Shown here piece by piece: positions 1 through 64,000 of a DNA stretch of 64,000 nucleotides. The stretch is taken from NCBI GenBank assembly GCA_008632985.1, contig QPGO01000107.1, forward strand, positions 62,001 through 126,000, in the 5' to 3' direction. Numbering within the stretch: position 1 is the stretch's first letter; every line of letters starts with the position of its first letter. Below the pieces are notes generated by a model that searched no databases, was not told the origin of the DNA, and saw only the letters and a list, made by a program, of their open reading frames with translations. The translations under genes and the position numbers were made by a program. This stretch comes from Psammoneis japonica. Taxonomy: Eukaryota.

Positions 1-21
1 GGGCACCCATCTCACAATTCA

Positions 22-2547
22 ATGAAGAATGAGTTTCTTCAAGGTGTCAGACAGCGACAGCAACCGCGATTGTTGAAAGCACTTCAGTGTGATTTTCCTG
101 ATGCAGCCAAGTTTGGCAGTTGCCTTGCAGATCTGCAGCAACCAACAACACCAGACAAAGAATTGCACTGCAAGTTGGCATTGGCCTTGTTTGCGCCTTG
201 CAGAACAATGATGGAACTCAAACCAACAACCCATGCACACCTGCGTGAATTCCAACTCTCCGCAGCAGCCGGTGTTGTTGCAGAGGAAAACTTGAACTTC
301 TTGCAGAACCTGCAGGATGCTAAGTCCAACTGCCTTCATCTCAAAAGCACATCTGACGATCTGCAAAGAAAGACGGAGCAATTTAGACCTGCTGACGTTG
401 CGTTTGACTGTCACAAAAGTGACAAGGAAGAAGGTCTTTCAGGTGCCGTTCAGGGTCAACCACTGGATGCACTCTTGGAAGAAATGGCAGAGCAGCCAGA
501 AGACGATGACATTGGGTTGAGCGACCAAGCAGTTGTTCCTGCACATTTGAGCGGCAAACGTGCAAGACAGAAAGGTTCACACATGGGTGGCTGCAAATGC
601 TTGGCAGACATGCACACTGACCCACCAAACGAGGAAAGCCAGGTCAATGAACGACAACTTTTTGAGAATCTAGAGGGCGGCGATGACACCGATGAGGAAG
701 ACCAGAATGAAGGAGTGCAACAACACATCCACAGCAGACCTCTGTCAAGAGACGACATTGTTCAAGCGATGCTGACTAGAACGCAAAGAACAAGAAGGTC
801 GTTTGAGGACATGACAGGTTTGGAAGAACACGTCGATGTACGTCAAGCAAACGGATCTGCAGCAAGTGTCGTAGACTGGGCTGGGAAAGCAAGACTGGAC
901 AGGCAACAGCAGCGTGCCTTTGAAATTCTAGCAGGAACCTTTGTGCTCACTTGCTGCCAAGACGCTCTTCAAGACGAGATGTCACGCAATGGACTCAACA
1001 GGAGAAACAGCAGACACAAATTCGCAACAAACCTTCGCCGATTGAAGAAACTCGTGGAAGTGCAAAGACGCAGAACGTTGCAACTTGTGTGTTTTTTACA
1101 TGGTGCAGGTGGAAGTGGCAAATCAACCACAGTGGACCTCGTCGTGGAATGCGGAAGAGAGCATTGCTCGCTTGTTGAGCAGCCGTTCACAACAAGCACA
1201 ATCAGAGTGACTGCACTGACCGGAGTGGCTGCGACTGTTCTCAAAGGGGGCACAATCCACCGAGTTGCACACCTTGTGAGAAGAAAGCAAATGGCCGAAG
1301 AGCAAATTGAAGCATGGTCAGACACGAGACTTTTGGTGGCAGATGAGATTTCTTTTGCAAGCAAGAGAGAACTGGAAAAACTCCATGAGAATTCAACAGC
1401 ATTGAAGAGCGAACCAAGCAAGCCGTGCGGTGGCATCAACATTGTTTTCGCAGGTGACCTCAGGCAACTAGAACCAGTCGGAAAAGGAGTGAAACCACTG
1501 TGCAAAGATGCATGTCCCGAGTTTCACGAGTGGATCAACTGCTGCACAGAACTTCGTGGTGCGCGCAGGTTCAAAGACGATCCATCATGGGGAAAACTGC
1601 TCAAGAGATTCCGCACTGGTGAGATTGCAGTTGACGATGTAGAGCACATCAACGAACGAGCAGTTCAGAACGAAGATGATCTGCCCAGTGACCTCCGCCA
1701 TGCCACGTGCGCAAATAAGGACAGAGATGCAATCAACACTGGCCTGTTCGAAAAAAGAGCAGAAACACTGCATGGAAGAGATGGAGACGTCCTTGACTCA
1801 ATGTTGATTTTCAGTGACGACTTGCAGGTGCAGAATGGCACGAGACTCTGCCAACCATTTCTGGTTTGCAACAGCTTCTGGAACAACTGTGGTGAAGGAG
1901 ACGTTGTCATGCAATCAGGAAGAATGGATCCAGTCTTGTGAATTTGCAGAAGATGCAGAGTCATGACACCTTTCAACGAAAATGCAGCAAACGGTCAAGC
2001 AAACGGAGTGCAAGCCACTGTTGACAAGGTCGTTCTCAAACCAGGACAGGAACCAAGACTGGCAACTTTAGACAACAACATTGGCACTCCTGCTGCACTT
2101 GCTGGTCGGGCAGACCACGTTGCATTGGAGCACTGCAACAAAAGCATCGACCCCGCGAAGTTTTTAGTTGAGCCAAAAACAAATGCTTTCAGGGCTTGCA
2201 TCACCAAGCCCAGCCTAATTTTAGAAGAAGGCGACAAACAAAGGCACACTTTCCAACTGAAGGCAACCCAGCTGCCGTTTGTCATCAACAATGCCACCAC
2301 AGGGCACAAACTTCAAGGGAGTGGAGTCCCGCAGTTGTTTGCACACTCTTGGAGCTACACCCAGAATTGGGTGCATGTTGTGCTCTCCAGAGTAAAGACC
2401 AGAGAAGGGCTGTTCATGCGAAAGCCACTGAGCAAGGACCTGCGAAAATGCAAGGTCCCAGAAGGCTGCAAAGCCTTGGTGAGACTCATGAAGGAGAGAA
2501 GCACCACGTGTTTTTCTCAGCAACAGTGTGCAGAAACATCAATGTAG
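22..2547 (+). pseudogene. Pif1-family (SF1B) helicase, probably the helicase part of a Helitron-like element; hypermutated, with one in-frame stop
   Basis: Walker A GAGGSGKST, ALTGVAA, DEISF, GGINIVFAGDLRQLEPV, TGHKLQG and HVVLSRV motifs. ORFs 22-1941 and 1963-2547 are in the same frame, separated by TGA at 1939-1941. No Tyr in the first 639 aa. The 5' part probably lies outside the window. Confidence 0.8.
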
Positions 2548-2693
2548 TGCGCAAACATTGGATTAGGATGCTCAACCACTGCACAACTGTTTGGCGACCC
2601 CAACTGCAAAAATGCGGAAATTTCGTAAAATGAAACATTTCGATCAGATCAGCACATTGCGCAGAAATCTGCACATGCGCCACACAACGTCGA

Positions 2694-3718
2694 ATGGATT
2701 TTAACCAACAAACCAAGAAATGCAAACGCAACCGTCACAGAAAACGCAGCAATGGAGAAAACACGGATTTGCAACAACAAACAAAGAAGGCAGACGAGCC
2801 AAAGAAAACTGGTGAGGACAAGAAAAAGGTGCAGACATGTGCGGAACTTCTCCAGTCATTGATGAATGAGGAAGACGAAGAGGAGATTACCTTGGAAGAA
2901 GCAAGAGCGGCATTTGACCTTGCCTCGGGAAATTTTGATGTCACTTCTGCACTTGTGCAAGACAACACGACAGCGGACAGTCATCATGTGGAAACAACGG
3001 TCGCACCCAAGGATGGCTCAACCATGGAGGAGCCAAAGGCAGCACATGCAGCGGCGATTCCACAGTGGTCGGGGAGATTTTTCACCGAGGAGGAGATGGC
3101 GGAGCAGGAGAAGGAGCAAGCAAAGTCCCTTCAGAAGAAGCATGGCCAGAAACAATGGAGTTGAGCAAGTCACAAACAACCATTTGGCAAAGACAACCGC
3201 GTCAATGCGCAAAATGCATGCACATGGACTTTCACTCAAGCCGCCGCGGATTGAGTGTGGCCACAAATGAGGACTGGCCATTTGGCAAAGAAACTGCAAC
3301 AATGCGCAAATTTCGCACATTTCCACATTCACTCAATCCAGTGCAGCTTGCCTTGGACAACATCAACGTGCACAACTGGACAACATCAATGTGCACAGAC
3401 AGCCTCATGAAACCTCACAGAAGACAGAACGGTCAGAAGCAAAACAACCAGCACCACGCACAAACGCATGTCAGTCATGTCGTGTGGGTCGCGCAAAAGT
3501 GCGCACCGAAACAACCGTCGTGTGCCACAATTGGTTCGAACGCCCGGCGCAAAATGCAGCAAAATGATTGGTGCAGGCAATCGTCATGGCTCCATTTTCT
3601 GACAGCAGCGAGGGCGGCAATCCAAAATCTTTCGGTTTCAGACTTCGATCTAGAGAGTTCCACCTAAAAGAGGAGGAACCAATGAGATTGAAGAGATCGC
3701 ATCCAAGATCCAAGATCG
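2694..3718 (+). mobile_element. Downstream part of the helicase-bearing repeat: small ORF (2694-3164) plus a non-coding tail shared with 42850-43340
   Basis: 3140-3715 aligns by eye with the reverse complement of ~42855-43340 (e.g. ttttctgacagcagcgagggcggcaatccaaaatct). Confidence 0.65.
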
Positions 3719-4096: not shown

Positions 4097-4235
4097 GGGG
4101 GGGGGGCGATTTTTTCCATTGATCGTGGCACGTGGAATACGTACGTGACATGCAGTATGTACACTCCATTGCCCGCAGTGCGGGGCCCCGCTCCGGGGGT
4201 GCCGTCCTTTTTTCAAAAAAATGCCCCGTCATGCT

Positions 4236-4443
4236 GGGGGAAGTCTCCAGCCAGCTGCTGGCTGAAAAAAGTCTGCTCATCAGTGCGTTTGGGGGGTTAT
4301 GCCAGTACAATTTTTACGTACGCAAAAGACGACGAGTCTGTCCAGCGTTCCCCAAAACCCCCTAATGCACAGATCGACAGATTCTTTCAGTACAAATTCT
4401 ACACAAGATTCTTCAGCCAGCAGCTGGCTGGAGACTTCCCCCC
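4236..4443. mobile_element. ~210-bp MITE with ~31-bp TIRs; second copy at 45189-49645
   Basis: gggggaagtctccagccagctgctggctgaa ... ttcagccagcagctggctggagacttccccc. The interior matches 45189-45365. Confidence 0.9.
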
Positions 4444-7647: not shown

Positions 7648-8234
7648 TCTGGGTTGCATCAATCTACCACAAGTAGGAAAAGGTTCGATGAGATGCTTTT
7701 GTGGACGATGCAGCAGCAAGAAAGCGGCTCATTTATTTGCAACACATCGTCAGCAATGAAAGAACTCCATCCGACATAAAACCACGCAAAAACGGCGCTG
7801 ACGCAAACGTGTACTGACGCCCGCCAGACGCCGCACACCCGGAAGTGGGCAGTCGTTAGTCCCCTCTGACCTCCGAACCGATGGACAGCTCTCTCTACGT
7901 ACGGTGGTAGAGGGAGCAGTAGAGAGAGAGAGAGAGAGGAGAGAGTGTTAGCTAGACTAGAGTTAGACTGATTTGAGTCTAAGCTGGAGCTGGGGCCTGG
8001 CCACTGAGCCAAAGAGAGATTGCTCGAGTGCTGATTGAGCTGACCAGAGCCAGAGCTGGGACCAACGAATTCGATCGAAGCAGGCCAGAGCTGGAGAATG
8101 GATCAGTGTCAACAACCATTGCTTTTCTCTTTTTAGGATCAATGCTTCTTCCAGATGTTTGCAGAACTTCCATCACACAAGAATGCAGTGAAAGCAGAGC
8201 AACGAAACAATGCGGAGGCTGTCGCACATCATGA

Positions 8235-8689
8235 CAAACAACTTGGAGTGTGACCCAACTGTCCCCAGCGGGAGCCCCAATTGACGGAACATTTGAACTC
8301 CCAACTTTGATCTCCACTCTCTTTTCTTGATTGCAATTGTCACCAGCATTGATGAAGGGAACAAGAGAAGCTGTCGCTCCACTGCTGCATCTGCTCATCA
8401 TTCAACGGCGCACTCAGCTTCGTCGTTGTGGCAGGTGCAAAGCCCCTGTCCAGAACCTTTCACCAAACAACTTGGAGTGTGACCCAACCGTTCCTCACGG
8501 GAATCCCAAACGACGGAACATTTGAACTCCCAACTTTGATCCACTCTCTTTTCTTGATTGCAATTATCACCAGCGTCGATGAAGGAACAAGAAAAGCCAT
8601 CGCTCCATCACTACGTCTGCTCATTATTCAACGGCGCACCCAGCTTCATCGTTGCGGCAGGTGCACAGCCCCCCTCCAGAACCTTTCAC
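8235..8689. repeat. Tandem duplication of a ~229-bp unit
   Basis: Units start at 8235 and 8464 (caaacaacttggagtgtgacccaac...ccagaacctttcac). Confidence 0.9.
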
Positions 8690-13496: not shown

Positions 13497-14399
13497 TGTG
13501 TGCTTTGAAGAAGCCAGGAGTCCGAACCTTGTAGAAAAAAAGATTACCGCGTTGTCGCCTGCACTCGTGTGTCTTTTTCTGACAAGGTTTTCGCGTTGTC
13601 AACCGAGATTGCGTCCGGCACGTTCAACGTCCAGTCGTACCAATACGTTACACACACTTTTTTCTATGTCTCTCGTCCACTTGCAACCCTAACCTCCACT
13701 GTGAAGGTTGCAACGAGATCAGATAAGGCAACCCCACACTCCCATTTATACCTGACTGTCCACCAAGTGCACACCGCTTGATTTGACAACGAAGATTTCA
13801 TCTGCGAACGGACGAAAAATCTCTACCGTGTACTGACCGTCGTACGAAGATTTGTCAATCTCCAAATTTCCAAAAAACACAAAAATCATGACCTCGCCCA
13901 TGGCGCATCAAACTTGGAAGCCTACCACTCTGTAACTATGAAGAACTGTCTCACGATACGTTGCAGAGTCGTTATTGACACTACTAAGAATATACTGGTA
14001 GCTAGATTTTTTGATTTACGACCAAGTATTGTCATGAGTAGAGCCATCAAAGTGACAGATGATTTGCAGGTCGAATTTTCGGTCCGATGCTCAACTTCTC
14101 TCCAATCGAAGTTGTTGAAGCTTGATTTGAACAATGCCAAGTCGTTATCGAAGGTTTATCCCGATATATCAAAGTTGGGGGCTACTGTGGTGCTTCCAAA
14201 GACAGTCATTGGATGCTCCAGCGACTTCAGAATCGTGGATCGGAAAATTGTTGATTGCATCACGCTCGGCAAACCGCACCGAGATTTCGAGAGGGAAAAA
14301 TTCAAGAATGCACAGCGTTGGGAGAGAGACAAATATAGGAAAAATGCAACGAGTTTGATGGAGCAAAAAGAACTTCTCCGAGCGAAAATGACTTCATTG

Positions 14400-15302
14400 A
14401 GCAATGCAGACACACGCACGGTTACACGCACTGACACACGCTCGTCAATGCCTGAACACAACGAGTGCTCCATGCACGGTCTGTCACACCGCCACCCACC
14501 AATTCCAAATTCCAGTCGCCCATTGAGAAATGGATCTCAACAAGATGCCACAGTTGCAGAAGACTCAGTGGCAGCAGCCCCGCATTGTCAAGGACGAGCT
14601 TCGTCGAGAGCAAACGACAAGAAACCGGGACTTTGCAGATGCCGTTGAGTCAACGGAAATGCAGATTGAACGATCAGGAGCCACCTGTTGCGTGGTTCAG
14701 GAGATTCGAGAGCTGTGCTTCAACGTGATGGGCATGTGCTGCCTCCAAGCTTTGACCACAAACCTGTTGACGTTCCCGAACAAGAACGAATTGCTGATGC
14801 TGACGGTTTCGTGAGCAACAAGCGACCAAATGGAGACCCAGCTGTTAGCCGGGCATTGGGAGACTTTGGCTTCAAGAGTGATGCATCACTGCTGCATGAT
14901 CAACAGCCAGCAACATGCGCACCTGAAATCGTTGTTTGTCCTCGCAAAAAGGATGGGGGTGAACATGTCGTCCTTGCATGCGACGGTGTGTGGGACGTGC
15001 TCGACAACCAAGGTTGCGGAAAGATGGTGCAAACCATGTTCGATGAAGGAGAAAGTGATGTCAGACTGGTCTGCAAAGAGGTGCTGGACACGTGCTTAGA
15101 AAAGAAAAGTAGAGACAACATGACCATTGTTGTGATGTGTTTCGAAGCTGCCTCAATTCAGAAAAACCGGCGTCTTCAGAAGAACGTGGTCCTGAGTCGG
15201 AGGGCGTCACGGTCAGATGCGACCATCATGGAGGATGCCGGCATCAACAGTGCCACACAGGATGCGTTTGGCAAAGTGGCTGGTGGCATTGTGTGTTTCT
15301 AG
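14400..15302 (+). pseudogene. PP2C protein phosphatase, degenerate and TA-depleted
   Basis: SGATCC, GDSRAVL, DHKP, VSRALGDF, VLACDGVWDV and SRDNMT motifs, with frameshifts. Confidence 0.85.
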
Positions 15303-15451
15303 CGCTGTCGATGCAGACATGCACATTTCGCACACGTGCACTGTGCAGATTGAAATGGGCTTCCGCAATCTTTGTTGCATTTATTTTGAGCATCGAAAGC
15401 GCCATTGCGGTGTTGTACAAAATTGCAGACAAACATGAATGGGAAGAACAA

Positions 15452-17600
15452 CTAGGAAGCATGCCAGGAATTGTTCAGTGTGTCTCCTGAACTGTTGCGG
15501 CGGGTGATCTTTCGTGTGTTGTTCATCCTTCCAGACTTCCATTCTTTAAAGACATTGTTGCCATGAACTGAGGAGGGCTTCTTGCCAGATTCATTGGAAC
15601 AGATTGAATCGTCATCGGTGATTGCAGTCACACTAAGTTTTGTTCCGGCAACACTTGCATTCCGCCTCAGTCTACCGCCGTCGCTGGTTGCTGCCAAAGG
15701 ACCTTTGTCTCAAGGGAGTGAACTGTTTCAACAAGGCAACGTGATGCGCAAAGGTCTCGCAGCTGCTGGAATTTGGCAACTGGCGGATCAAATCTAGACT
15801 GCAGAGAAAACAGAGCATAAAATGGTGAGACATGGTGGAATTTTGCATGCACACAGGATGTTCAGCCGAAACGGGTGGTTTGATGTCATCAACCCACGAC
15901 TTGCGCCTCAGCATGCCCATCTTCCTCCAACAATCTCTTGAGCTCACTGGTTGGAATGACTCCGAGCTTGCTGGTCTTAGATGTGGTGGCAACACCGCCA
16001 TTGGGCATTGGCGAGACTTCGGTTCCTTCTTCATTGGCAGTCACATGCTGCTTGACTCTTTTTAAGAATGCGGCAAACTCCTGCTTGCTCAATGACGTAG
16101 CCAATGACGTTGTGACACTGCGTTCAAACTTTTGACATCCCCAAAACAATGCACGCCTGTGGACGCTGCCTGTGATCTTGATGCTCTGAGTCCGATTGAC
16201 TTTCCTTGAGAAGCTGGTGCTGCCATTGGCACCCGCCTGACCCTTGGCAGCTTCTGCAGCAATGTCTTCCACACTCAACGGTGTGCCATCATTTTCCTTG
16301 AAAGTTTTGTGAAAATTCACAAACTCATCCTTGGCCAGCACCTTCTCAGCAGACGGTCTAGACTTGTGACGATGCACCAACAGCTTGTCCAGCAATTCCA
16401 GGAAAGAGTCCGGCATGTCGGTCGGCAAATTGGGGAGTTTTCGAAGGTCCCGTCCCTTCCCCTTTTGTGTCATGTTGAATGCTTTTTGAAGCTGCTCTGC
16501 AGGACAACCAGCCACCAAGATGTGCAGCGTGACACCACAGCTCCAAACATCCGTTTTAGAGATGATGTGTGCGTCTTTTGAAACATTTCAGGCGAAATGT
16601 AAAAGGCGGATCCAGCAAACGCAGTGTGTTGCGACAACTCCTTTGGATCAGCTGGAGTTTCAGATTCGATGCAGCCCAAGCCAAAATCAACAAGACGCAA
16701 TTCTGCTCCGGGCTTCACCGACTTGAACCTGGATGAAAACAAAAACAAGAGAAAGGGTCAGTTTGAGCCCGGGATGGAAATCGAGCTCGCACCCCCACTT
16801 CTGCAGCAACTCACATGAGATTCTCGGGCTTGACATCGCGATGACAACATTGTGCTTGGCACAATGATTCACAGCATCAAGCAACTGAAATGCAATGCTC
16901 GACACATCTTCTGATCGGAGTTCAGCCTCCTGCTTGGAAATGCACTCCATCATCTCACCGCCTTCACACAATTCTGCAACCATGAGAATCTGCTTGGGCG
17001 TTTCACAAACACCCAACAGTTTCAAACAACAGTGCGCTCCATTCAGCTTTCTGAGAATCTCGCATTCCTGCTGCAAGACTTTCAAATCAACAGGGGCCAT
17101 GAGAGCATCATCCTTAAACTGGACTCCCTTGCGCAAAACCCAACACGCTCTCATTTGTTTGGTCCATGAGATTCGTCTGAAAGTGTCGGACCATGTCCTT
17201 TCTCTTGCTTGGTTCAGCCATTTCATGATCAGACATCTTTGATCTCGTCTTTACAACACCATCTTGCCGAGAGCATGTAAGAGAATGGCACAGACACTTG
17301 GAGCAAAGGGTGCTGCACTTGGGACAGGTAATTTGGTTGTGTCGTCCAAGACCGGTGCATGCTCCCGCAAAACATTCAACACACAGTCAATGATTTTTCC
17401 TGCAGAGAATCGTAAAATGTGCGCTGCCTCTCTCGGGCATCCATCCATTGCACTTGCAGCATTCAAAACCAGGTGTTTCCGTTGCCACAGGCTCGTCATG
17501 CCGACGACGCTTGACATCAGAGGATTTGCATGATGATCTGAGAGATTGGCGTTTGTGCCTTTCACGGCCACTCATTTCAAACCATAAAATGTTGAACAAG
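15452..17600 (-). pseudogene. CAMK/CDPK-like protein kinase, degenerate, retaining an intron (16729-16814)
   Basis: ELCEGGE, HRDVKPENLM|GTGAGT...CAG|FKS, LVDFG, AGSAFYISPE, RPSAEKVL; frameshifts and stops. Confidence 0.85.
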
Positions 17601-18216
17601 CCCATGGAGAGTGTTCGACGACACTGCCAAGTGTCGAGTGTCAGTTTGTTGTGGTTGCAGAGTGGCAGGCTTCCAAGTTTGATGCGCCATGGGCGAGGTC
17701 ATGATTTTTGTGTTTTTTGGAAATTTGGAGATTGACAAATCTTCGTACGATGGTCAGCACACGGCAGAGATTTTTCGTCCGTTCGCAGATGAGATTGTCC
17801 GCACCGGTTGTTGGTCGTTGATGACCGATGCTGACCGCGCCGCTGCCGTGCTTTTGAGCTTCTGGCGGATCTTCGTCTCGATTTCTCGCGCACCAGCAGG
17901 CGCGTGCTGTCCCCCCTTTTTTTTTTTTTAAAAATGTCCAGGTTCAAACGTCTGCATTGACACATTAAAAAAAATGTCCGACATGCAGCAGCACCGCACG
18001 GCAGACAACGAGTTTCTCACATTTTTGTCAAAGCCAACAAGGACTCCGAACACCCGCAAAGTCGAAGCAAAGATTGCAGTGAAGTTCAAAAGCAAACTTG
18101 TGCAAGCAGACTCCCTCAAACTCTTTCAAAATCAACAAGTCATAATTGCACTGCTTGACTGCGTTGTGTGGCGGCCTTTTTGGAAGCAACTCGAGAAAGA
18201 CGAAGGTGTGGTGGTG

Positions 18217-35700: not shown

Positions 35701-36018
35701 GTTGCCACAATGAAAACAGTTGCTAGCAGGTGAAGCAATTGGGACATGGGACCAGGCTTGGAATTGCCGGTGCCAAGCAATTGGTTCCCTTTTTCACTGT
35801 GTGCAGACCATGCTGCCAACGCGGAATGCTGCAAGCATTGCAAAAGCACTCGTGTCATTGGAGGAAGAGCCAACCCGAAAAAAATGTGCATGTGTTGTCT
35901 TCAGACATGAGGGAGAAACAAATGTTCCTCCTGAACATGTGTGTTTGCACGTGTGTCAGGATCAAATTATAAAATTCAAAATTGAAATTTTGGATGCAAT
36001 GGGACAACAGTGGGTGAA

Positions 36019-42000: not shown

Positions 42001-42849
42001 TGGTGCGCATTTCACAAGAAGAACAAGAAAACCCCAAAAATGTGGTGGCAAATTTTGTTTTGACTGAACCCTCCCGGGAACGCATGTGTGCGCATGCAAT
42101 TGACATTGGCCAGACAGAGCTGGCAGCTCCAATCCAATGCAGCACATGAGCACATGAATCTGGATGTCCTGTGTCCCCAAGAGAGGGAAAAATTGGACAC
42201 ACCGAGAGGAAAGGTGATGACCATGGGCTGCAAAGCGGCAAAACGAGGGGCTTGACATGGGAGTTGAAGAACGAGCAACAAATGAACTGAAAAGCCATGC
42301 TGACATTGCCCATGTGAGACTTCAATGGCACTTAGACCACACACACCATTGAAAGGTGTGGCAAAACAGGCCAGAGTGTGAGACAATCCTCGGCCGTCGA
42401 AGCGGCGCCTGACGTGTTCCAGTCCCAGGTGACACACAAAATGACCATCCATTTTGAACACAAATGATTTGTCTCTCATGTGTGTGGCATTTGAATGTAA
42501 AACACTTGGGTGGATGGGCTTTTACAGGCACTTGGAGTGTGAACACACAAACAGTTTTTTCGTTGGTGTTCAATTCCTCATGGGACATGTGTCACAAACT
42601 CCCTCTGAAGACTGAATGCTGGCTGATTGTACGACAGCACATTGGACACTGATTTTCGGTTGCAGGTGGAACACCCACCAGAAGGTCTTGTAGAAAAATC
42701 ATTTAATTTGACACTCAAATGATGGCAACATTTTTGCCGAAAATCATCCGTTGTGTTGCAATTCGTTTGTCGCAATGAAAAACATTGTGAACAGCGTGAA
42801 AACAATGACATTGCAACACTGATGTGAGTCTTGTTGGTGTTGCAAAACA

Positions 42850-48329: not shown

Positions 48330-49415
48330 AAGCAACGCCCCACAGTGCAAGTCTTGCCAATCCGCCTGATGACCCTCAAGTTGTCCATGGCGACGGAGGT
48401 GTGCTTCACACACTGAAAACATTTTTTCAATTGGATTGAGGTCGGGACTGCAGGGTGCAGTGTACAGCAACCTCGCGTTCTTCTTTTTCTCTGTCAATCG
48501 TTTGATGCGATGGTCAAAGTGCGTCGATGCGTTGTCCATCACTGCCACCGAATTTTTCTCTCCTTTTTCACAGTCACCCAGCTGTGGTGCCAAATGTGTT
48601 TCTGCCCATTCACAAAATCGGTCTGAGTCCACAGTTCCTGCTGCTCCCTCATCACTGACATTGTCTCTCCTGACGGTGTCACAAGCTTCAACAACAAACC
48701 CATTGATGTTGCAAGCTGCAAGGCATGTGTGGCACACTGCATCCTGGAACCATTTCTTCAAAACAAGGTCTTCGTTGCGCACCCCCCAAGCCCGATGGCG
48801 TCCAGCAGCATTCTTGTCTTTGTGTGTCTCGTCGCAAAAGATCACTTGACATGGGTCGAAAACAAAAAGTGCCAAAGCCACCTTGTGCTCATGTCGGAGT
48901 CGCTCGTTTCTCTCCCTTGCAACGGCAGCGTGTGTCTTTAGAGAGTGTCCCAATTTGTCATGAAGGGCTCTCCAGACAGTGGACGGATGAAACAGAGTCC
49001 CAGCTTCAACGCACAGATCGTGGACAAACTCATCAAGATGATGCTCAGGATTGCGCTCAAGAATCTTTCGAAGGGCTTCGACGTGCCTTGGACGAAAGTG
49101 CCGCCCTCCTTGCCAAGCCCCAGCGGACCGTCTCAAAAGTCTTTTCCACTCTCGTGACGTGTCGAATGGCAGTTCTCCATAAAAGAGACAGTGCTTGTGC
49201 CAACGCCGGAGTTGACGTGCACCAGTGCGAAACATCCTTGCGCCCTGCCTCAGCACGGCGGCGAGGCTTGCCGTGCCTGCCATCAGTTGGACCTGATCAA
49301 CAACGCATGCAGTGGCATCTCTTTGAGTCGTTCGGGATGCCTTTCCAAAAGCAAGCCCTGCTAGAGAGAGCAATGTGATGAAAAACGCGAACAAACGGAC
49401 CGGCTTCATTGCCAT
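48264..49415 (-). CDS. IS630/Tc1-like DDE transposase (DD35E), hypermutated
   Basis: HLDE...STVWRAL HTH, FCDET, VMDNASTH, APCSPDLNPIEKMF (=PYSPDLNPIE); 35 residues between the second D and E. Confidence 0.9.
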   Translation of the reverse strand: MAMKPVRLFAFFITLLSLAGLAFGKASRTTQRDATACVVDQVQLMAGTASLAAVLRQGARMFRTGARQLRRWHKHCLFYGELPFDTSREWKRLLRRSAGAWQGGRHFRPRHVEALRKILERNPEHHLDEFVHDLCVEAGTLFHPSTVWRALHDKLGHSLKTHAAVARERNERLRHEHKVALALFVFDPCQVIFCDETHKDKNAAGRHRAWGVRNEDLVLKKWFQDAVCHTCLAACNINGFVVEACDTVRRDNVSDEGAAGTVDSDRFCEWAETHLAPQLGDCEKGEKNSVAVMDNASTHFDHRIKRLTEKKKNARLLYTAPCSPDLNPIEKMFSVCEAHLRRHGQLEGHQADWQDLHCGALLSVTPNTAAKHFRKCGVPGMEN

Positions 49416-49711
49416 TGTTTCTGATCTTGTGGTGGCTGTTTCTCAAAATCTAGCACTTATTTTGTGTACGATTCTACGTGACTATTGAGAGGAACCCGGA
49501 AGGTTGTTGTCGAAGAAAAAAAAAAAAAAGAGAAACACCTCTCTCTCTCGAACCCTGTGACATTTTTCCCTCAAACAGCAATAGAGGCCCCTGCTCAGGG
49601 GTGACACAAGATTCTTCAGCCAGCAGCTGGCTGGAGACTTCCCCCTCCCCAGCCACATTGCTGCCTGCTCGCTCGTCGCATTTCGTGATTCGTTGCTCGC
49701 CGCTGTTGCTC

Positions 49712-50577: not shown

Positions 50578-51038
50578 AGCTACAAGGTGCCCAAGGCAGA
50601 GATAATGTAGCGTTTTTGCTGCACAACTAGAATATAGTATGTGTCTATTATCCCCTCCACGAAGATTCTACTTCTTGCCCGCAAAACCCGCGTTCTAGAA
50701 AGTGGTGGAAATCCCAAGAACATTTCAGGTTTCTATCACAAGTCCAGCCGAACAACGGCTCGAAAGAGTGGACTATGAAGTACGAGGTTGATTTATATGA
50801 AGCTGAAGTCCCCAATCCAAATCAAGCATTCTAAATAAATTTTCAACGTTGTACAATACATCAGTAAGACGCTTATTTCTGTATTATTTTGATTCTCGCT
50901 ACAGCTGGTGGATTTCGATTCATGATTATTCCGTTCTTCTTCTTGTCCCCCGGAGACGAAGCGAACAAGCGAGCGAGCGAAGCACGCGCTCGGGCGGCAC
51001 GCACGCAAAAACTAACACAAAAAGTAAAGAAAGCGAAA

Positions 51039-53104
51039 ATGACAATGGTGTCTGCAACCCAAGCTTGGGCCATATTGGCTCGCCACGCACGGGATGAAAT
51101 TGCTCCCTTACGACTGCAAGAGCTCTGTCGCGATACTGACCGTGTCTCGTCCTTGGTAACGGTGTACAACACGAGTGAAACTGCTGCATCGTCCAAGAAT
51201 AAACGCAGGACGACACACGACGACGAAAATCGCATCCTCTTGGTGGATCTATCGAGACAAAGAATGACAATTGACACCATCAATCATTTGATGAGATTAT
51301 CGACATCTCGAAATGTAAAGGCATTCATCCAAAAGTTGGCGTGGGGACAAAACAATCCGAACGATCCGGTGGTTCCGAAAAGGTCTCGGCGTAACAACAA
51401 TGGATCGAGCACCGCCTTTGAAGACAATGATCGCTTTCGTCCAACTACTACTCCAGGGGATGACACGTCACCCAGTATGCACTTAGCTCTGAGAGCTCCT
51501 GCAGGTTGTGGCCTGGTCATGTTAACTGAGGATGGGCATAATGCGCTACATGACATACACTATGAGTGGGAACGAATTGAAATGCTCTCTGACTCGATTC
51601 GTAGAGGAAAGCTGAGAGGTGTCAGTGGAAGCGTCCTTCACGATGTACTAGTAGTTGGCAGTGGAGTCCCCGTCATGGCGTTACGATTTATATACCAGGC
51701 ATTACTCCATGACAAAACAGCTCATAATGCAACCACGGCTGTGGATGGAGAGGGTGGTCGACATCGACGAGCGGCAGGGGGTCCAAGGCGACGTCTTCGT
51801 TTTCTTTCCTCCGTCGACCCGATTGCGTCATCGTCAGCTCTATCCGGCCTTGACCCTAATTCCACGATTGTTTTTGTCAGTGATTTGCAGGGTAACGAGG
51901 AAGTCGACCATGTCACTCGAACAGCAAAGAGCTGGTTGTTGCAAGGTCTCGGTACGAACAAGAGACCAGACCTCATCTTTCACAAGCATCTGATGCTTTG
52001 CACTGGGAACAAGGATGTCGCTACTGGCTACACACCAGAGAGTGTATTTTTGATACCTGAACATTCTCGGTGTGAGGCGTTCACAACATTTACACCTGCG
52101 ACGTTACTCGTAAGTGGTTGATTTTCGTACAATCGCTCTCAATTGTGGCATAAACGCCTGTACTCATCCTAATTGATGGCATGCATAACGCAAAGCCTCT
52201 ATCTATTGTGTTTGGTTGGAAACTTGTGGAGCAGTTTTTGTCCGGTGCGCATGACATGGATACACACTTTGTTGAGACAAATCCACGGCATAATCTCCCC
52301 GTGTTGCTGGCTTTATCTGATGTTTGGAATGATAAATGTCTTGGTTCAGCTGGTCGAGTCGTGACTCCTTTTACAGAATCCCTTTCAGCATTTCCCTCAT
52401 TTGTCGCTGCCCTCGAGGCCCAGACTTGTGGCAGAAAGCCCGACGACGGTGTGGTAGATGGACAATCCTGCTGTGCAATAGTGACGGACGGCGGACTTTG
52501 CGGTGTTTATGATCGTGCACTCTATCAGAGTGGACGTGTGGCGTCTGCCGAACTTGTAATGACAATGGACACTCAGGCCACAACCACGTACTCTGCTGAG
52601 TTGGGACTGGAAGGTGTGGATGGAGTGTTAGCAAGTCAAGATGCTCTAATGTGCTCGTTGTTTGCTCACGCGGACACAATGGCGTTTGGGACAGAAGGGT
52701 ACTCATCGACACGGCGAACGACTGAAATGTTTGGCTCCGGGTCTCCGAGCAACGCGGCGACCGCGAACTCTGACGTTACCGAGGGAAATCGACCAAGTTC
52801 AATCCTAATGTGTGGGAAATGCGATGCCTTCACGTGTGGGCAGTTGGTGGCGTTGTCTGAGCATCGAGCTGTCGTCAAGGCTCATTTATTGGGTGTTGAC
52901 CCATTTGTAACTTCGATAGGATCATCACTTCGAACGACTTCATTCGACAAACTAAAAGAAGAGCTTCAAAAGATGTACTCCAAGCCCGTTGGAGAAAGTG
53001 ATGATGAGAATGATCTCCCTGACTTGAATCTGTCAACTTCCACAATCCTCGGGCATTACGCCAACCTTATGCGCGATCAGAGAATATACACTGTAAAAAG
53101 TTAA
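51039..53104 (+). CDS. Divergent glucose-6-phosphate isomerase-like protein; intron 52110-52195
   Basis: LLVDLSRQ, MHLALRAP, IRRGKLRGVSG, FLSSVDP, FLSGAHDMDTHF, NLPVLLAL, GNRPS, GQLVALSEHR. Confidence 0.8.
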
Positions 53105-58197: not shown

Positions 58198-59587
58198 CCG
58201 TGATAATAAAGAAAAGTAAGAAAGGTTGTATTCTTGATGTTGTCTGTTTCGGAATCGATTTTGTGAGATGTTGTTTGGATTCTCTTTCCAAAAAAGAGTT
58301 TGCAGATGGCGTGTATCATATGATATGAAGATTTATTCGGGGTTCGGTTGAGATCGAAGATTGTGACACATTGAGAGAAACTTACCGTAAGATCCTATGT
58401 AATGTTGGCATCAAATCATCGGGGGGTGAAGATTGAAGATAACGACATTGTGCGAGAAAATTAGCATTAAAATGTTGGAACAGATCGTTTCGCAGAATGA
58501 TGCTGACAAATCAGAGTTTGGGGTTCGGATTTGTGGCTGGCCGTCGACATGGGGCTGTGCCACCGTACGATTACGAGCAGATGCGAATGCCGATGATTTA
58601 TTCATTCTGTGCTGTAAAACCCCACTTCGCTTGCAGTGACGTGCATGCCAGCTGTGCCGCAGCATGCAACTGGCCAGCTGGAGAGAGCATGCACATCACA
58701 AAACTTCCCCGAGACATCGCATCAACAACGACCCAATGGACAATGGGCAAAAATGCAAAAGACAACAAGATGTCTGCAGTGGGGCCGCACCAGCCGACAC
58801 AACTGTGGCTGGTTGACACAGCGCAAACTTTGCTGGCTTGTTCCAAACTTGGGTGGCGCACTCATGCCCATTTTCGCACAAAAAATGAACATTTTGTGCT
58901 TCACATGACATCGCGGACATTTTGTTTGAATGATCACATCAATGGCTTTTGGGCAAATTAAAAAGAGCAAATTCGAGCCAACAAACAGCCAAAAGCCATG
59001 GCTTTCAGCAACCATGACGGCCCTTTTTTCAACCTCAGCATGACAAATTGAATGTCATGATGAGGACCACAGCATTTGACACAGTCTGTGGCATCTGCCA
59101 CAATGATGAAAATGCTTGATGCAGGCTGCAGCTCGGCACAAGAAGACTCAATCTGTCAGCACCAACAATTGAGCCTCAGCTCACTCACAGTTTGCCTCCA
59201 AGGTGCATTTCTTTTCCATTTCCATGTGCATTTCCTCCACAACATGGACTCATGCAAGTGTGCCAGTCATTTGTGCCGACAGAACAGTGAAAAAGGGTCC
59301 AAAGTCGACGCCATTGCGTTTTGCTCAGCTTCACTTCTTCTCACGTCTTCCGAAACTTGCCAGTCAATGTGTGTTTTGTTTGGTCCATTGAGGCCAACTT
59401 GTGCTCACACATGTGGATGAAACATTGCTCATGTCTTGTTAGAGAGTGTGCTGGCATGTGAGAATGATCGTCAATGTTGTTCATTGATGCGCAAAAACAG
59501 CCACAAATCGCTCATCGGAAAAAAGAGCTCTCATCTCACGGCGCAATTCAGTGATCAACAACTCAGTCCATCCTCAGTTTCTCATGC

Positions 59588-60230
59588 ATGTGCAGCATGC
59601 ATGCAGACAAAAGGTCTTTTGTCATGCCCTTTGTGACATTTAAAGGCTGCAGCACGTCGCCGTGATGCATTGGCTCTCATTGGCAGCTGTGTGTTGCACT
59701 CCTCCCCATGCATCACGTGTCCATGCGGCTCTTTGCTGACGTGTGCTGACACTGCACGGTTTTGGTGGAACAGTGTGGGTGCGTATGAAGGAACACACAG
59801 AACTGCGCTGCACAGAGTTTTGCGCATTCGACAGTGATCAACATTGCTGCAGACAACTCCCACTCAGGGTTTCGAACCCCTGGCCTCCTGCCTGATGGTT
59901 GCGATGAACCACTCCGCTGTGAATTCACAGCGCAGCATGCATGCAGACAAAAGGTTGTTTTGTCACGCCCTTTGTGACATTTGAAGGCTGCAACACGTCG
60001 CCGTGACATCAACTCTTGTTGGCAGCTGCACACTGCACATGGGCGCATGCATGAGACCTTTCTGCATGCACCCACAACAACACATTTGAAGATCATCATG
60101 CGCCGTAAGTTTGGACTGTGCGTTTGTGTGAAAAGTGGCATTTTTTTGCACGCGAGGGCACCCAAGTCTGTGCATTTGTGCGAAAAGTGGCACTTTTTTG
60201 CACGCGAGGGCACCCAAGTCTGGAACAAGT
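59588..60230. repeat. Local duplications: 59588-59720 vs 59932-60040, and two ~52-bp tandem units at 60117-60222
   Basis: gcagcatgcatgcagacaaaagg...tttgtgacattt occurs twice; gaaaagtggca.ttttttgcacgcgagggcacccaagtctg occurs twice. Confidence 0.8.
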
Positions 60231-60771
60231 CTGCTTTGGAAGTCACTTGATTTTTAAAGTCTGCTGCACTGCTGGTGTGCGTTGCTCTGTTGTGAGCCTC
60301 TTTTTTTTGCTGAGTTGGCAGCGCTTGGCCCTCCAGCACAAATTCTGCACACGCTTCTGCACTCATCCTCCGCAGCCACGCTGTGGTTTGTGGCCTGTTC
60401 CAGCTCCAGGTGATGCGCACAGGCTCGATTCCCATCACTGGCCCATTTTTGCATTTGGCACAATGAACTCCTTCAAAATCATTTCTTTTTCCAAATCGAT
60501 GGGTGAGTGCACACAAAACTTTTGTTTTTTTGTGTGCGCTCACTTTTCGATTTTTGAAACGATCAAATTTGAAGGAGTTCAATGTGCCAAACTGCACAGA
60601 AAATTGGCCTCTCTTGTGAGATGGATTGCTCATCACCTGGGGCTGGAACAGGCCTTGCCAGCTCTTTGGGCTCTGGCTCTGACTTTTTGCACTGAGCTCC
60701 CAAGTGGTTTGACATTTTTTGGCTCTGCTCTGCGGCTGTTCTTTCTGCAGGGTGAGTTGTTGGTGCAAACT

Positions 60772-61570
60772 TCAAACTTGCAATGCAGCGGGTGCCTGGT
60801 GATGCCAAACCCAGCTCATGGGACAAATGGAAAGGTGAGTGAGATCGGCAACAATGAAGGTGAGTGAGATCAGTGACGACAAAGCTCCAGCACAAAGAGT
60901 CACAAAATTCACCATGTCAGGAGCCTCAATGTCTTCTTTCAACATGCCTGGGTCCTGGGTTGCCACATTTCTGTGACCCAGGTGCTCCAACACACTCCTG
61001 CCCCTTGCAACAACATTCTTCTGGCCAGATTGATCCGGCTCATCTTGAGAGGCTGCAACTGCCTTCTTCCCCTCTTTGCCATCATTCCTCAATTTGAAAA
61101 CATGAAAGCTGGCGGACACCATCTCTGTTGTTTTAGAACAATCAACCACATTGTCAAATGAGTGTGTCATGTCATGAACAAACTTCACAAAACATTCCAT
61201 GTGGTCATGACAAAGTTTCTCTTTCTCATCTTTGCCATCCTGGTCCTTGATCAGATCCACAATCCAGCCATCAGCTGCCTTGGGAGTCAAGGCAAAGAAC
61301 TCCAATTCTCTGCAGAAAGCTGCTTGTGTAATTTCCATGCAGAAAAAATTCAAGGTGAAAGAACAGCACCAACTTCTGTGCATCACAAATGATGCAATCA
61401 TTGTTCCTCATGAGTCTGTGGTGGGTCATGTCAATGTCACAATCAAGGGTCTTAACAAGCTTCACAAGACTGCCACACACCTTGTTCTTGTTCACACCAC
61501 AGGTGGGCAAAAACTCAAATTCCCACATGGGTTGCAAGCGTCGCTTTTCACATGAGTTGTTGCTGCTCAT
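60772..61570 (-). pseudogene. Possible BTB/POZ (KCTD-like) gene remnant, degenerate
   Basis: DCDIDM....MRN and ITQAAFCRELEFFAL resemble a BTB/T1 domain end; frameshifted. Confidence 0.4.
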
Positions 61571-61739
61571 GGTTGTTCACAGCAACAGATTGTGGCGGTT
61601 GAGCCATGTGGTTTGGCAACCTTTCTGAGTGACAGGGATCTTTCACCCACAAGCATCAGAGCTCTCTCATTTGACATCAGAAAGAACAGGAAATGCTCCT
61701 GTCATGCTTGAAGCCAACAGCCCACAATGGCTTGTTCAA

Positions 61740-62330
61740 ACTTTCAAACCTTCTTGCCCTGCAATGGCTCAGTCATGAAGTCTCCAAGTGCATCATCAGC
61801 AGGACAGCATGACTGCACTCTCAGACTGCCCTTTTTGACTTGATCAGTGACAAAAAATGCCGAATGTTGAGTGCTCTGGAACCACTTGCCGGCACTCTTG
61901 CCCCCATTGGTTTCCAGCAGTGTGGCACTCTTGTTGTCCTGATGCAGGACATTCTTGTCAATTGGACACCCCTGATGCTCCATGAACAACTTTGTTCACA
62001 GTGACATGGTCATGGCATTGCTGACCCCAACAAGCTCAGCTTTTGCACTGCTTTGGGCACTGAGCTTCTGGTGCTTTGACGTGGCTTGCACTGCTCCGCC
62101 ATCCACCATTGCAACTCCTCCTGTGTGGCTCTTGAAATTGGGGTGCACTGCAAAACGAGGCATCCACGTGCCACTTGCAGCAACTTGGAGGTCCTTTGTG
62201 CTTGGTGCAGCAACTTCATTTTGTGTCTGGCTCACATGCCTGAGACAATGGACTGGCTCCCCCAATCTTCATTCACAGTGCCCAGGTCCTTTGACCTGTG
62301 TGCACAATGCTGCAACAGTGGGGTGCACAT
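61740..62330 (-). mobile_element. Ty1/Copia retrotransposon RT-RNase H fragment, degenerate
   Basis: FAVHPNFKSHTGG, SKHQKL...SSAKAELVG, LHQDNKSA.LLE.NG, FFVTD, GDFMTEPLQG. Confidence 0.85.
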
Positions 62331-64000
62331 TCATGCGGCCACTCTTGGGTGCAAATGGCCCCTTGGCCACCCATGCTTGTGCAGCATGTGACTGTCACAT
62401 GCATGTCTGCAATTGCACATCCTTTGCACATCAATCATGCCACAGTTGCGATGCTCACAAAGGACAGAACAATCACACAGAGTTGGTCGGAAGTCGAAAA
62501 TTGCAGGTGCAATTGATTGATGAGCTGTTGACATCTTGTGTGTCAACAGCAATCACATCTGGACAATCTGTTGTCATGAACACATTCTCCGAAAGGCCTT
62601 TTGTCTGCAGAAGCAGCACAGAAGCTTGCTTCAGGCCATTGAGAACTCATTCGGAGAAACCAAAAATCACAGAGTGAAATTTAATCTCACAATTTCCACT
62701 TTTCGTGCTTCACTCTGCTTTTGTTTGTGCTGTTCTTCAAGCACAGTGCATTGTGCATGCACACCACAGAAGGCAAACACATGGAAAATGAAAATTTCAA
62801 CCAACGTGCCTTTGCAAATTCTTCCATGAGCAGGAACGAATTGCGCCAGTTCTGCTGGAATCAATTTCCAAGTGGAAGAAGCTCAGTCCAAGCAGTGCCT
62901 CAAGATGGAACACTGTTTTTTGTCTGTCTGACAAGAGGATTCGTCATGCATGACGGGCAACAGAGAGTTCATCTGAGTGGTGATCGAGGTCAGGAGGACA
63001 CTCGGCTCTCACACGAGATGCGGCAGTTGGGTCGCTGATGGGGGTTTTGTTTGAAAAGATGTGCCAGTTTTCCCTGAGGTTGTCGGCAAGGTAAAAGTCG
63101 GCTGCGGAATGGTGAAGCACACGCTCCGTGTCAGTTGCCTTGTCAATGATGTGAAGGCATGACACATGAGCAGCAACTTCGTCTGAGGTGACAGATCGAC
63201 ACTTGGACGGGTCAAAGTGCTGTCGGAGTGTAGACTTGTCCAACCACGACATGTCATTGGGGTCCAGTGGGGGAGATGACGCAACCGGGCCTTTCGTGGT
63301 GTGAACCGGAGGAGAGGCTGGCAGCTGGGCGGGAGGACCTTCCAGTGAAGAGGAAGGTTTGTGGGAATCCATGGTTTCTGACAAAGTGGGAAGGTTGGCG
63401 GTGAGAGTGCGGTTTGCCTCCCGTGACGACGGCAGGTCGGCAGACAAAGGAGGACGTGCCTTGGCAGAGCGTGATGCAGTCTTTGGCTTCTTGTTGGGGA
63501 CGGTCAAGGAAGGCTCTTGTGTGGCGAATGTGAACAATGGGACAAAATGTGGATGTGTGAGAAGACGGATGCACAAGAAACATGCGGTGACAAGGAGGGG
63601 GGGCACGCACCGTCGTACAAACAGGTGCCGTCTTTGCGGGTCCTCCCAATTTTGCGTTTGGTTTTGGATTGATGCTCTTGTTTGTTGTCATCATCCATGC
63701 AGTCAGCCCTCTGATCATGCACTCTGCATTGAAGGATTGTGAGCAACTTGCTGCACTTGGGTTGCATGCCAGGTTGTTCCTTGGGACAGTGCTTCCCAAA
63801 TTCGTGGTTCAACATGGAATTTGTTTTTTCTTCATGCGCCTCCCGACGGGCAAGGGAATCACCAGCCACCGTCACTTTGTTCTTCATGTTGCCGATTTGG
63901 TCTGGAGCAAGGTGTTCCTCAGTGTTGTCCACCTGAGAGCCTGGGTCGTTAGAATCGCGTGGCACAAGAAAGCTGTTGATGAACAGGCACCACTCCTTTT

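Follow-up and report, generated by a model that had tools for sequence, protein, structure and literature searches.

The stretch of DNA analysed here, a 64-kb window of the Psammoneis japonica assembly GCA_008632985.1 (contig QPGO01000107.1, positions 62,001 to 126,000 of the forward strand; coordinates below count from the first base of the window), is nuclear DNA of a diatom in which blocks of mobile and decayed DNA are interspersed with compact islands of genes. The nearly intron-free island genes encode RNase P p30, a class I/II aminotransferase, an MFS transporter, an SF1 helicase, PGI and a short-chain dehydrogenase. For the aminotransferase the best organism-named matches are all diatoms (Eucampia, Thalassiosira, Nitzschia, Pseudo-nitzschia, Cylindrotheca, Cyclotella and others) at 62–79% identity. 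The blocks hold a Helitron, a Tc1-like element, repeats resembling miniature inverted-repeat transposable elements (MITEs) and other high-copy repeats, along with a tandem repeat and defunct host-gene copies (Table 1), and in all of them the dinucleotide TpA (TA) has nearly disappeared. We are highly confident that a real process, confined to these domains and converting TpA to TpG or CpA, has acted here.

The blocks were called with a two-state hidden Markov model on TA counts per 100 bp. The six of them total 34.7 kb, or 54% of the window, and have observed/expected (o/e) ratios for TA of 0.04–0.10 (0.08 over all blocks, some 12-fold below expectation), whereas other A/T dinucleotides are not depleted (AT 0.86, AA 1.25) and TG and CA are raised to 1.4–1.95. 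In the five gene islands between the blocks TA stands at 0.51–0.64 and CG at 0.93–0.98, GC content being nearly equal in blocks and islands; the window as a whole contains 1300 TA (o/e 0.31), with TG and CA each at 1.43. An earlier note, made from the letters of the window, had pointed to six blocks nearly free of TA, and the limits set by the model agree almost exactly with its own. Within the boundaries that it drew they contain 24, 4, 40, 5, 85 and 14 TA (its manual count of 24 over positions 1-3718 is exact), and they differ overwhelmingly from the islands (172 TA in 34,943 bp vs 1128 in 29,057 bp; chi-square 914, p = 7e-201). The block edges are sharp, resolving to 100 bp or less: over positions 2900-4000 successive 100-bp intervals hold 0, 0, 0, 0, 0, 0, 0, 2, 8, 16 and 12 TA. 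CpG is low in the blocks as well (o/e 0.26–0.73), a feature on which the earlier note laid little weight; across 31 one-kb block windows TA o/e spans 0.00–0.21 vs 0.03–0.90 for CG, the TA loss being the more complete and the more uniform of the two.

Table 1. Blocks, elements and gene copies in the window (TA and CG ratios are observed/expected)
Feature	Position	Strand	Details
TA-poor block 1	1..3600		22 TA, o/e 0.10; CG o/e 0.65
Helitron Rep/Hel open reading frame (ORF), C-terminal helicase part	1..1941	+	646 aa, open at window edge, 0 Tyr, TGA stop; Pfam PIF1 E 3.5e-14
MITE-like repeat, gene-island copy (reference)	4225..4442		~215 bp; 7 TA, o/e 0.55
TA-poor block 2	8001..8600		2 TA, o/e 0.05
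226-bp x2 tandem repeat	8235-8689		between two host genes, mostly in block 2; 3 TA, o/e 0.11
TA-poor block 3	14201..20700		40 TA, o/e 0.10; decayed host-type gene pieces
PP2C phosphatase fragment, C-terminal half only	14670..15299	+	Pfam PP2C E 1.5e-34, profile 120-255/255; 0 Tyr; 3 TA, o/e 0.08
Protein-kinase pseudogene	15892..17250	-	three reading frames; Pkinase profile 42-120, 135-181 and 173-261 in three ORFs
TA-poor block 4	24801..25600		800 bp; 2 TA, o/e 0.04; CG o/e 0.26; no recognisable content
TA-poor block 5	31601..49400		17.8 kb; 87 TA, o/e 0.08; CG o/e 0.45
Decayed partial duplicate of the window's PGI gene	31888..32736	+	849 bp; 69.7% identity; 1 TA; CG o/e 0.16
Low-copy TA-poor DNA	35788..42439		~6.6 kb; 22 TA, o/e 0.06; no recognisable content
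MITE-like repeat, block 5 copy	45175..45386		1 TA
Tc1-like DNA transposon	45584..49581		3,998 bp; ~136-bp terminal inverted repeats; 26 TA, o/e 0.10
903-aa ORF within Tc1-like element	45618..48326	+	0 Tyr; convergent with transposase; exceeds chance maximum of 437 aa
DDE_3 (Tc1-like) transposase ORF	48267..49442	-	392 aa, 2 Tyr; Pfam DDE_3 E 2e-14
PGI gene, functional, two ORFs	50889..53104	+	gene island; parent of decayed copy; TA o/e 0.55 over 51214-52038
TA-poor block 6	58601..64000		15 TA, o/e 0.04; CG o/e 0.43; no recognisable content; continues past window end

The depletion reaches into the reading frames of the blocks. Among 86 stop-to-stop ORFs of at least 120 aa found there, most have no tyrosine and the maximum is four, and both the 646-aa helicase ORF and the 903-aa transposon ORF are wholly free of Tyr, as the earlier note had read them. 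Strand-symmetrised counts of TAA, TAG and TGA are 139, 103 and 1546 in the blocks and 489, 465 and 1101 in the islands. When block-like DNA was simulated 200 times with a first-order model the longest chance ORF had a mean length of 275 aa; 355 aa marked the 95th percentile, and no run exceeded 437 aa. Because chance ORFs reach 437 aa in these simulations, only the block ORFs of 903, 646 and 459 aa exceed chance; the other block ORFs of 250–425 aa are no evidence of genes.

The direction of change can be read from three sources. Firstly, each of four internal sequence pairs is divided between an island and a block, the island copy being taken as the ancestor. The parental PGI gene has 29 TA and its decayed copy one; of 24 parental TA that align without gaps none is kept in the copy, where 11 read TG, four CA and nine something else. 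The three younger pairs behave alike (gene-side vs block TA: 7 vs 1 for the MITE-like pair, 7 vs 1 for a pair of 178-bp repeats and 5 vs 2 for the ends of the Tc1-like transposon), and pooled they show 15 TA to TG/CA differences in the expected direction and one in the opposite. Secondly, conserved tyrosines are lost in the predicted manner. At the 11 columns of the Helitron helicase where Tyr is the majority residue among 30 homologues the window protein has Cys at seven, His at four and Tyr at none, and at the 10 such columns of the Tc1-like transposase (40 homologues) it has Cys at four, His at four, Ala at one and Tyr at one; the replacement of conserved Tyr by Cys or His, noticed earlier by eye, thus extends to 19 of 21 columns (11/11 in the helicase, 8/10 in the transposase). 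The Tyr content of 46 transposase homologues is normal (1.7–7.5%). Thirdly, the Tc1-like element is flanked by CA on the block side (45582-45583) and by TA on the gene side (49582-49583), TA being the target duplication expected of this superfamily. Because of the copy pairs, the Tyr-majority columns and the flanking target duplication, TA is the ancestral state and TG/CA the derived one. The A:T to G:C direction and the copy pairs cited for it in the earlier note are thereby borne out, and the alternative of ancestral TG/CA is contradicted by both the copy pairs and the protein outgroups.

The change is specific in its target. Pooled over the four pairs, 44 of 89 bases at TA sites have changed vs 77 of 563 at other A/T positions (Fisher p = 4e-13), and 37 of these 44 changes are transitions; since one hit destroys a TA, change at about 50% of TA-site bases amounts to the loss of nearly all TA dinucleotides. 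When strand-symmetrised A to G changes are sorted by 5' neighbour, T (37/89) stands apart from A (19/191), C (16/177) and G (20/195), an excess at TA over the roughly 10% of other contexts which the earlier note had anticipated. The 3' neighbour matters too: within TA the A to G fraction is 21/36 before C, 7/15 before T, 7/21 before G and 2/17 before A, and at non-TA adenines, where the ranking is similar, it is 27/137 before T, 15/125 before C, 10/173 before A and 3/128 before G. The same context is visible in block/island trinucleotide ratios (ATA 0.03, GTA 0.08, CTA 0.19, TTA 0.24) and in the tetramers, RTAY (R, purine; Y, pyrimidine) being nearly extinct in the blocks (o/e 0.01–0.05) and YTAR surviving best (0.14–0.17). 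A multiplicative model acting on each strand separately, with no palindrome term, accounts for 90% of the log variance among the 10 NTAN classes (N, any base); in it the base that follows the adenine fixes TA survival at 0.11 for T, 0.21 for C, 0.52 for G and 0.73 for A.

Both strands are affected, as had been proposed. Gains of TG and CA are balanced per 500 bp with an imbalance no greater than that of the islands, Tyr to Cys and Tyr to His replacements both occur, and strand-coordinated runs of TG or CA were not seen at the 500-bp scale (SD, standard deviation, of z 1.33 in blocks and 1.38 in islands). These counts show T-A-Y to be the favoured context, with the 5' T required and the 3' pyrimidine preferred, and the strands to be independent targets.

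A second process runs in the same blocks. CpG sites have changed at 54 of 145 positions vs 49 of 449 for other G/C (Fisher p = 8e-12), and C to T is specific to CpG, with 43/145 before G vs 4–11 of 125–178 before the other 3' neighbours (11/178 before A). This is ordinary CpG to TpG/CpA decay, which accounts for the CpG component only and not for the TA loss. GC-biased gene conversion was considered and rejected, since 14% of A/T sites outside TA have changed vs 49% of those at TA, and since blocks and islands are almost equal in GC content. In the PGI pair there is an apparent excess of off-motif A to G changes (49 vs 20 transitions).

Finally, the process is confined to the blocks. Ten host ORFs have TA o/e ratios of 0.50, 0.53 and 0.58 for codon phases 1-2, 2-3 and 3-1, and the non-ORF parts of the islands have 0.74, vs 0.02, 0.11 and 0.12 at the three phases of the transposon and pseudogene ORFs; synonymous and intergenic island sites are thus shown to be spared. 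The parental PGI gene and the gene-side MITE-like copy are untouched, so that duplication or repeat status alone is not the trigger, and in two elements the end that faces a gene has retained more TA than the inner one (5 vs 2 and 7 vs 1). The earlier proposal that the process is restricted to blocks of transposons and duplicates is supported, with gene islands spared and with the qualifier that duplication as such does not set it off; the target looks like a chromosomal domain rather than sequence homology, a reading that rests on few cases. Relatives of the Tc1-like family found in metagenomes have TA o/e of 0.48–0.98 (the best 80 of 416 confirmed loci) vs 0.10 for the window element, and no TA-poor relative was found among these best-scoring 80, a sample in which decayed copies are under-represented. 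Judged by these relatives, the family is shown not to be TA-poor by nature.

The sequence of the blocks was compared with a public sequencing run, X1, which is probably of the assembled sample and whose platform is not recorded; contigs were built from its exact 31-letter words. Five of these contigs (depth 30–37) reproduce 5,955 bp of the low-copy part of block 5 (35788..42439) with 0 differences, which argues against an error of the assembly consensus, though not against a feature peculiar to the sample. Frameshifted pseudogenes, the 30% divergence of the PGI copy, the CpG decay and the graded sequence context all speak for genuine evolutionary decay. Other copies or haplotypes in X1 differ from the window at 325 places (259 transitions, 66 transversions), and 40 of 346 differences divide into 18 at CpG, 18 of other kinds and four that gain or lose TA, plus one adjacent CA/TG pair.

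Several further observations concern the runs themselves. Exact-match contigs of X1 have a depth of ~30–37 in 35788-42439 vs 59 in 49973-51000, while summed depth is ~50–63 in both, a pattern that suggests a diploid whose haplotypes are too divergent in the block to share 31-letter words, and hence higher allelic divergence in TA-poor DNA. The sole X1 contig over 31239-31692 (depth 50.7) carries eight differences in 454 bp, three of which are also in a second run, X2; these reflect either an assembly error at the block edge or an unassembled haplotype. Run X2, of unrecorded type, is RNA-like, with a depth of ~170–190 over 49677-51000 and a 90-base GT..AG skip at 49834-49925 (depth 341) that resembles an intron lying 5' of the PGI gene. 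It gives no cover over 33002-47675 and under 0.5 from 31668, which was not used as evidence of silencing.

The contents of the blocks are heterogeneous. The Helitron ORF of block 1 aligns to residues ~1060–1704 of ~1900-aa proteins with Helitron_like_N and PIF1 domains. In block 3, the PP2C fragment and the kinase pseudogene are flanked by an inverted pair of 178-bp repeats (13795-13972 and 17618-17795, 89.9% identity) which may be the ends of a large gene-capturing DNA transposon. Descent of the kinase pseudogene from the kinase gene at 22.8 kb was rejected, the two having no similarity. A 459-aa ORF in the same block (18473-19849, plus strand), just above chance length, includes direct repeats (18598-19305, 67–71% identity) and has a weak, sub-threshold match to thrombospondin type 3 repeats. 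Block 5 is made up of high-copy repeats, single-copy degenerate DNA and the Tc1-like element. X1 contigs join across this element, skipping exactly 4000 bases, that is the element and one 2-bp target duplication. Its 903-aa ORF has no relatives among proteins of similar length, no atlas match and no Pfam domain, and is possibly a second transposon protein, perhaps blurred by hypermutation. The MITE-like element has ~30-bp terminal inverted repeats, and 42 bases at 49604-49645 are identical to 4401-4442; its gene-side copy lies just upstream of, or within the first codons of, the RNase P p30 ORF. The stretches of block 5 homologous to it reach a word depth of ~2000 in X1, which marks a many-copy family, and the blocks also hold other repeats of very high word depth in that run. 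In block 6, a 263-bp stretch (60392-60654) matches its own reverse complement at 72.5% identity and a 52-bp unit is tandemly repeated twice (60116-60222). TA-rich patches (8–16 per 100 bp) at 3700-4100 and 24500-24600 directly abut block edges and are probably AT-rich promoter or intergenic DNA of the adjoining genes. Rfam and tRNA scans of the window gave no match, and a scan of the block ORFs found no viral hallmark genes.

In these blocks a context-specific mutational process has converted about nine tenths of the TpA by A:T to G:C transitions, a hit on one strand yielding TpG and a hit on the other CpA. As its agent we propose a DNA adenine deaminase. Such an enzyme, recruited to CpG-methylated, silenced chromatin, would turn adenine to hypoxanthine, which is copied as G. 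Under the genetic code such changes can create no stop codon (the only stop-codon change being TAA to TGA), and elements would instead be disabled by missense, every Tyr codon becoming Cys or His and the Ile codon ATA becoming Met or Thr, and by the erasure of TA-containing signals and TA target sites, so that, whichever agent is at work, ruin would come through missense and signal loss rather than truncation. The process, here near saturation, would be the same as the TpA hypermutation of Bigelowiella natans (Mettrop et al., bioRxiv 10.64898/2026.01.13.699255), and the diatom would be a second lineage, distant from the first. As a whole we regard this as the best explanation, with a probability of about one half.

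The deaminase step taken separately, with a TadA/ADAT2-kind enzyme as the agent, is a tentative assignment that falls short of even odds. The preference for 5' T and 3' pyrimidine is compatible with a TadA/ADAT2-like enzyme, as far as a sequence context can indicate. In the natural tRNA substrate of TadA/ADAT deaminases (U33-A34) a U precedes the edited A, which fits the requirement for 5' T, and early TadA-derived DNA editors preferred Y-A-C. To our knowledge no natural chromatin-targeted DNA adenine deaminase has been characterised. Pfam scans found no deaminase gene among the ORFs of the 64-kb window.

Several points weigh against this proposal. The genomic scope is one 64-kb window, and X1, which comes from one sample, is not biologically independent of the assembly. 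With the island copy standing in for the ancestor, changes on the gene-side lineage are also counted, which bears on the off-motif A to G excess. Eukaryotic ADAT2/3 substrates mostly have a purine 3' of A34, a mismatch with the 3' pyrimidine preference seen here. That the block domains are silenced and CpG-methylated would follow from CpG decay, in line with diatom methylation being mainly CpG and with repeats being highly methylated (PMC5124317). Few differences among copies concern TA, so most of the TA loss is common to the copies, and in the high-copy families it may predate amplification rather than reflect current or copy-by-copy action in place; because TA to TG/CA creates no stop codons, spread after hypermutation is possible.

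The main rival invokes a mutagenic modification maintained on both strands of TpA in heterochromatin, for example 5-hydroxymethyluracil (5hmU) laid down by a JBP/TET-like dioxygenase or N6-methyladenine (6mA), that is mispaired or misrepaired. Like CpG, TpA is self-complementary, and within these blocks both dinucleotides end up as TpG or CpA; the tetramers hit hardest, RTAY, form a palindromic class (o/e 0.01–0.05 vs 0.14–0.17 for YTAR); and the sequence by itself cannot separate A to G from T to C on the opposite strand. In dinoflagellates 5hmU is enriched at TpA. Set against these points, the per-strand model already explains 90% of the context variance with no palindrome term, 6mA and 5hmU are not strongly mutagenic by themselves, and we know of no TpA modification in diatoms. 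The diatom methylome paper, in its accessible text, mentions only cytosine methylation (PMC5124317). We consider a modified base unlikely, though a serious competitor to the deaminase.

A further alternative is that the composition was inherited, the elements having been TA-poor at insertion, through an old master-copy burst or a TA-poor donor, with the block edges being insertion edges. Edges sharp to 100 bp or less fit this, as does the fact that only 4 of the 40 listed copy differences concern TA, most loss being common to the copies; and hypermutated elements, in which TA to TG/CA makes no stops, keep long ORFs and might still move. However, the host-derived PGI copy, PP2C fragment and kinase pseudogene are equally depleted and cannot have arrived TA-poor, and ~6.6 kb of low-copy DNA stands at o/e 0.06. 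The dinucleotide beside the Tc1-like element is CA towards the block vs TA towards the gene, and two elements retain more TA at the end that faces a gene (5 vs 2 and 7 vs 1). Unrelated families are all TA-poor here, with Tc1-like relatives elsewhere at 0.48–0.98 (best 80 of 416). We find inherited composition improbable, and even if partly true it only moves the hypermutation back in time.

A neutral bias against TpA across the whole genome, with selection keeping TA where it is needed and the blocks representing the unconstrained equilibrium, could draw on the islands being TA-poor too (o/e 0.51–0.64). It is very improbable, because synonymous and intergenic island sites keep TA: the mostly synonymous phase 3-1 (0.58) is not below phases 1-2 (0.50) and 2-3 (0.53), non-ORF island DNA stands at 0.74, an intergenic patch beside a block has 8–16 TA per 100 bp, and the gene-side MITE-like copy keeps its seven.

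An artefact of base-calling or assembly, in which a modified base in heterochromatin is misread and a true TA is written TG or CA, would gain some credit from the unrecorded platform of the assembly and the runs and from the eight places at which an X1 contig differs in 31239-31692. The same signature comes from Illumina data of B. natans mutation-accumulation lines (10.64898/2026.01.13.699255). With X1 contigs at a depth of 30–37 reproducing 5,955 bp with 0 differences, and with graded context, CpG decay, frameshifted pseudogenes and a PGI copy diverged by 30% all bearing the stamp of real decay, an artefact is scarcely credible. Least probable of all is RNA-level A-to-I editing of transposon transcripts by an ADAR- or ADAT-like enzyme, fixed by reverse transcription, since it is not retroelements that are hit but DNA transposons (a Helitron, a Tc1-like element with inverted repeats, MITEs), together with a tandem repeat and genomic copies of genes, since both strands are hit about equally (TG/CA balance as in islands; Tyr to Cys vs Tyr to His 4:4 and 7:4), and since ADARs favour a 3' G, which is disfavoured in the window. 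In its favour stands a 5' U preference, described as typical of A-to-I RNA editing in the B. natans preprint (10.64898/2026.01.13.699255).

There is a hint that the process may occur more widely. Five of 150 representative relatives of the Helitron helicase have about 1% Tyr or less (0.3–1.2%) vs a median of 3.2%. These relatives (P0267, P0271, P0290/P0317 and P0225) come from environmental assemblies, are available as proteins only and share 31–38% identity with the window protein. At conserved Tyr-majority columns P0271 has Cys at seven, His at five, Tyr at three and other residues at seven of 22; P0267 has His at four, Cys at one and Tyr at one of seven; P0317 has Cys at four and His at one of eight; and P0225 has His at four, Cys at two and Tyr at two of 12. 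Cys and His thus predominate in three of the five, whereas normal homologues keep Tyr at 17–26 of 27 columns. The Tyr-poor proteins may be hypermutated elements of the same kind elsewhere, which would be a hint of wider occurrence only. A larger claim, that diatoms and chlorarachniophytes share an old chromatin-guided DNA adenine-editing defence acting at T-A-Y, widespread among stramenopiles, alveolates and rhizarians and a counterpart of repeat-induced point mutation (RIP) and APOBEC in the opposite chemical direction, is speculative and in our judgement doubtful.

If true, it would be the first natural DNA adenine-editing defence, with a second lineage making it a general phenomenon: a defence that makes no stops and instead erases Tyr codons, TATA-like and other TA signals and the TA target sites of Tc1/mariner elements, and one overlooked because hypermutated elements escape homology-based annotation. 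Diatoms, which can be transformed and edited, are a tractable host in which to pursue it. The T-A-Y preference and strand independence narrow the type of enzyme to be sought, and a chromatin-targeted natural adenine deaminase would be of interest for base editing. The footprint also has consequences for annotation. The near-loss of TAA and TAG lets chance ORFs reach ~350–440 aa, inflating gene counts, and Tyr-free transposon proteins fall under family thresholds, so that transposon content is underestimated. Adjacent kilobases have very different mutation rates and spectra, a point of weight for base-composition models and for the population genetics of a major phytoplankton group.

The closest known system is that of B. 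natans. The earlier note had supposed the process to be undescribed, and in this it was mistaken: the same TpA to TpG/CpA hypermutation is the subject of a 2026 preprint on this alga (Mettrop et al., bioRxiv 10.64898/2026.01.13.699255). In that preprint, 230 of 231 single-nucleotide mutations in two hypermutable regions are A to G or T to C, all of these at TpA; the rate in these regions is ~1000-fold above that of the rest of the genome; the process is seen de novo in 11 of 15 mutation-accumulation lines; 124 clusters poor in TpA and rich in CpA and TpG occur genome-wide; TpA-poor coding sequences show an enrichment of DDE endonuclease and reverse-transcriptase domains; and the authors propose an adenine deaminase, with an ADAT2-like candidate (10.64898/2026.01.13.699255). 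The likeness is close, with nearly only A to G or T to C changes at TpA giving TpG and CpA, a regional pattern, and foreign or mobile DNA as the sequence hit. The differences lie in the host, a diatom here and there a chlorarachniophyte, thus a rhizarian, with integrated viral and other foreign DNA; in the evidence, mutations having been seen to arise de novo in B. natans whereas the window displays only the accumulated result; and in degree, the giant-virus insert of B. natans being moderately depleted (Rho 0.45) and the window near saturation (0.04–0.10). Co-located CpG decay, the 3' pyrimidine preference and depleted host-gene copies go beyond the accessible B. natans text, which does not report flanking context. 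Our literature search, which left most subscription journals outside its scope, found no diatom report and no organism beyond that of the B. natans preprint. The window is thus a second, distant major lineage, with a much stronger footprint, for a hypermutation known from one organism.

Like fungal RIP, the process seen here is a transition hypermutation with dinucleotide context that singles out repeat-rich blocks, spares genes and alters transposon proteins beyond recognition. RIP converts CpA to TpA, enriching TA and lowering GC, the opposite of what is found in the window, as the earlier note had rightly observed in pointing to TpA depletion rather than enrichment. RIP also creates stop codons, which the present process cannot, and mutates all copies of a duplicate, whereas the PGI parent (29 TA, o/e 0.55) and the gene-side MITE-like copy (7 TA) are untouched. 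RIP itself was accordingly rejected as the agent: TpA is depleted, C to T occurs at CpG and not CpA, one copy is spared and the host is a diatom, not a fungus of the kind that carries a RID-type cytosine methyltransferase. Decay of CpG driven by 5-methylcytosine is similar in turning a self-complementary dinucleotide into TpG or CpA on both strands of silenced DNA, and it is also present here, but it acts on C and cannot remove TpA.

The A-to-I enzymes, namely ADARs in hyperediting, ADAT2/3 and TadA on tRNA A34 and the TadA-derived editors, resemble the proposed agent in that A is read as G with a 5' U/T preference, and such enzymes have been used or proposed as anti-viral or anti-repeat activities, according to the preprint (10.64898/2026.01.13.699255). 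Their natural substrates, however, are RNA, and ADARs need double-stranded RNA and occur only in animals. ADAR-type hyperediting fixed through retrotransposition was rejected, the affected sequences being DNA transposons and genomic copies with balanced gains of TG and CA. Finally, APOBEC3 resembles the defence proposed here in being an innate one that ruins mobile DNA by deaminase-driven, context-specific transitions. It acts on single-stranded cDNA while reverse transcription proceeds, converting C to U with strand asymmetry and making stops, whereas the changes described here are A:T to G:C, fall on both strands and have accumulated in resident chromosomal DNA.

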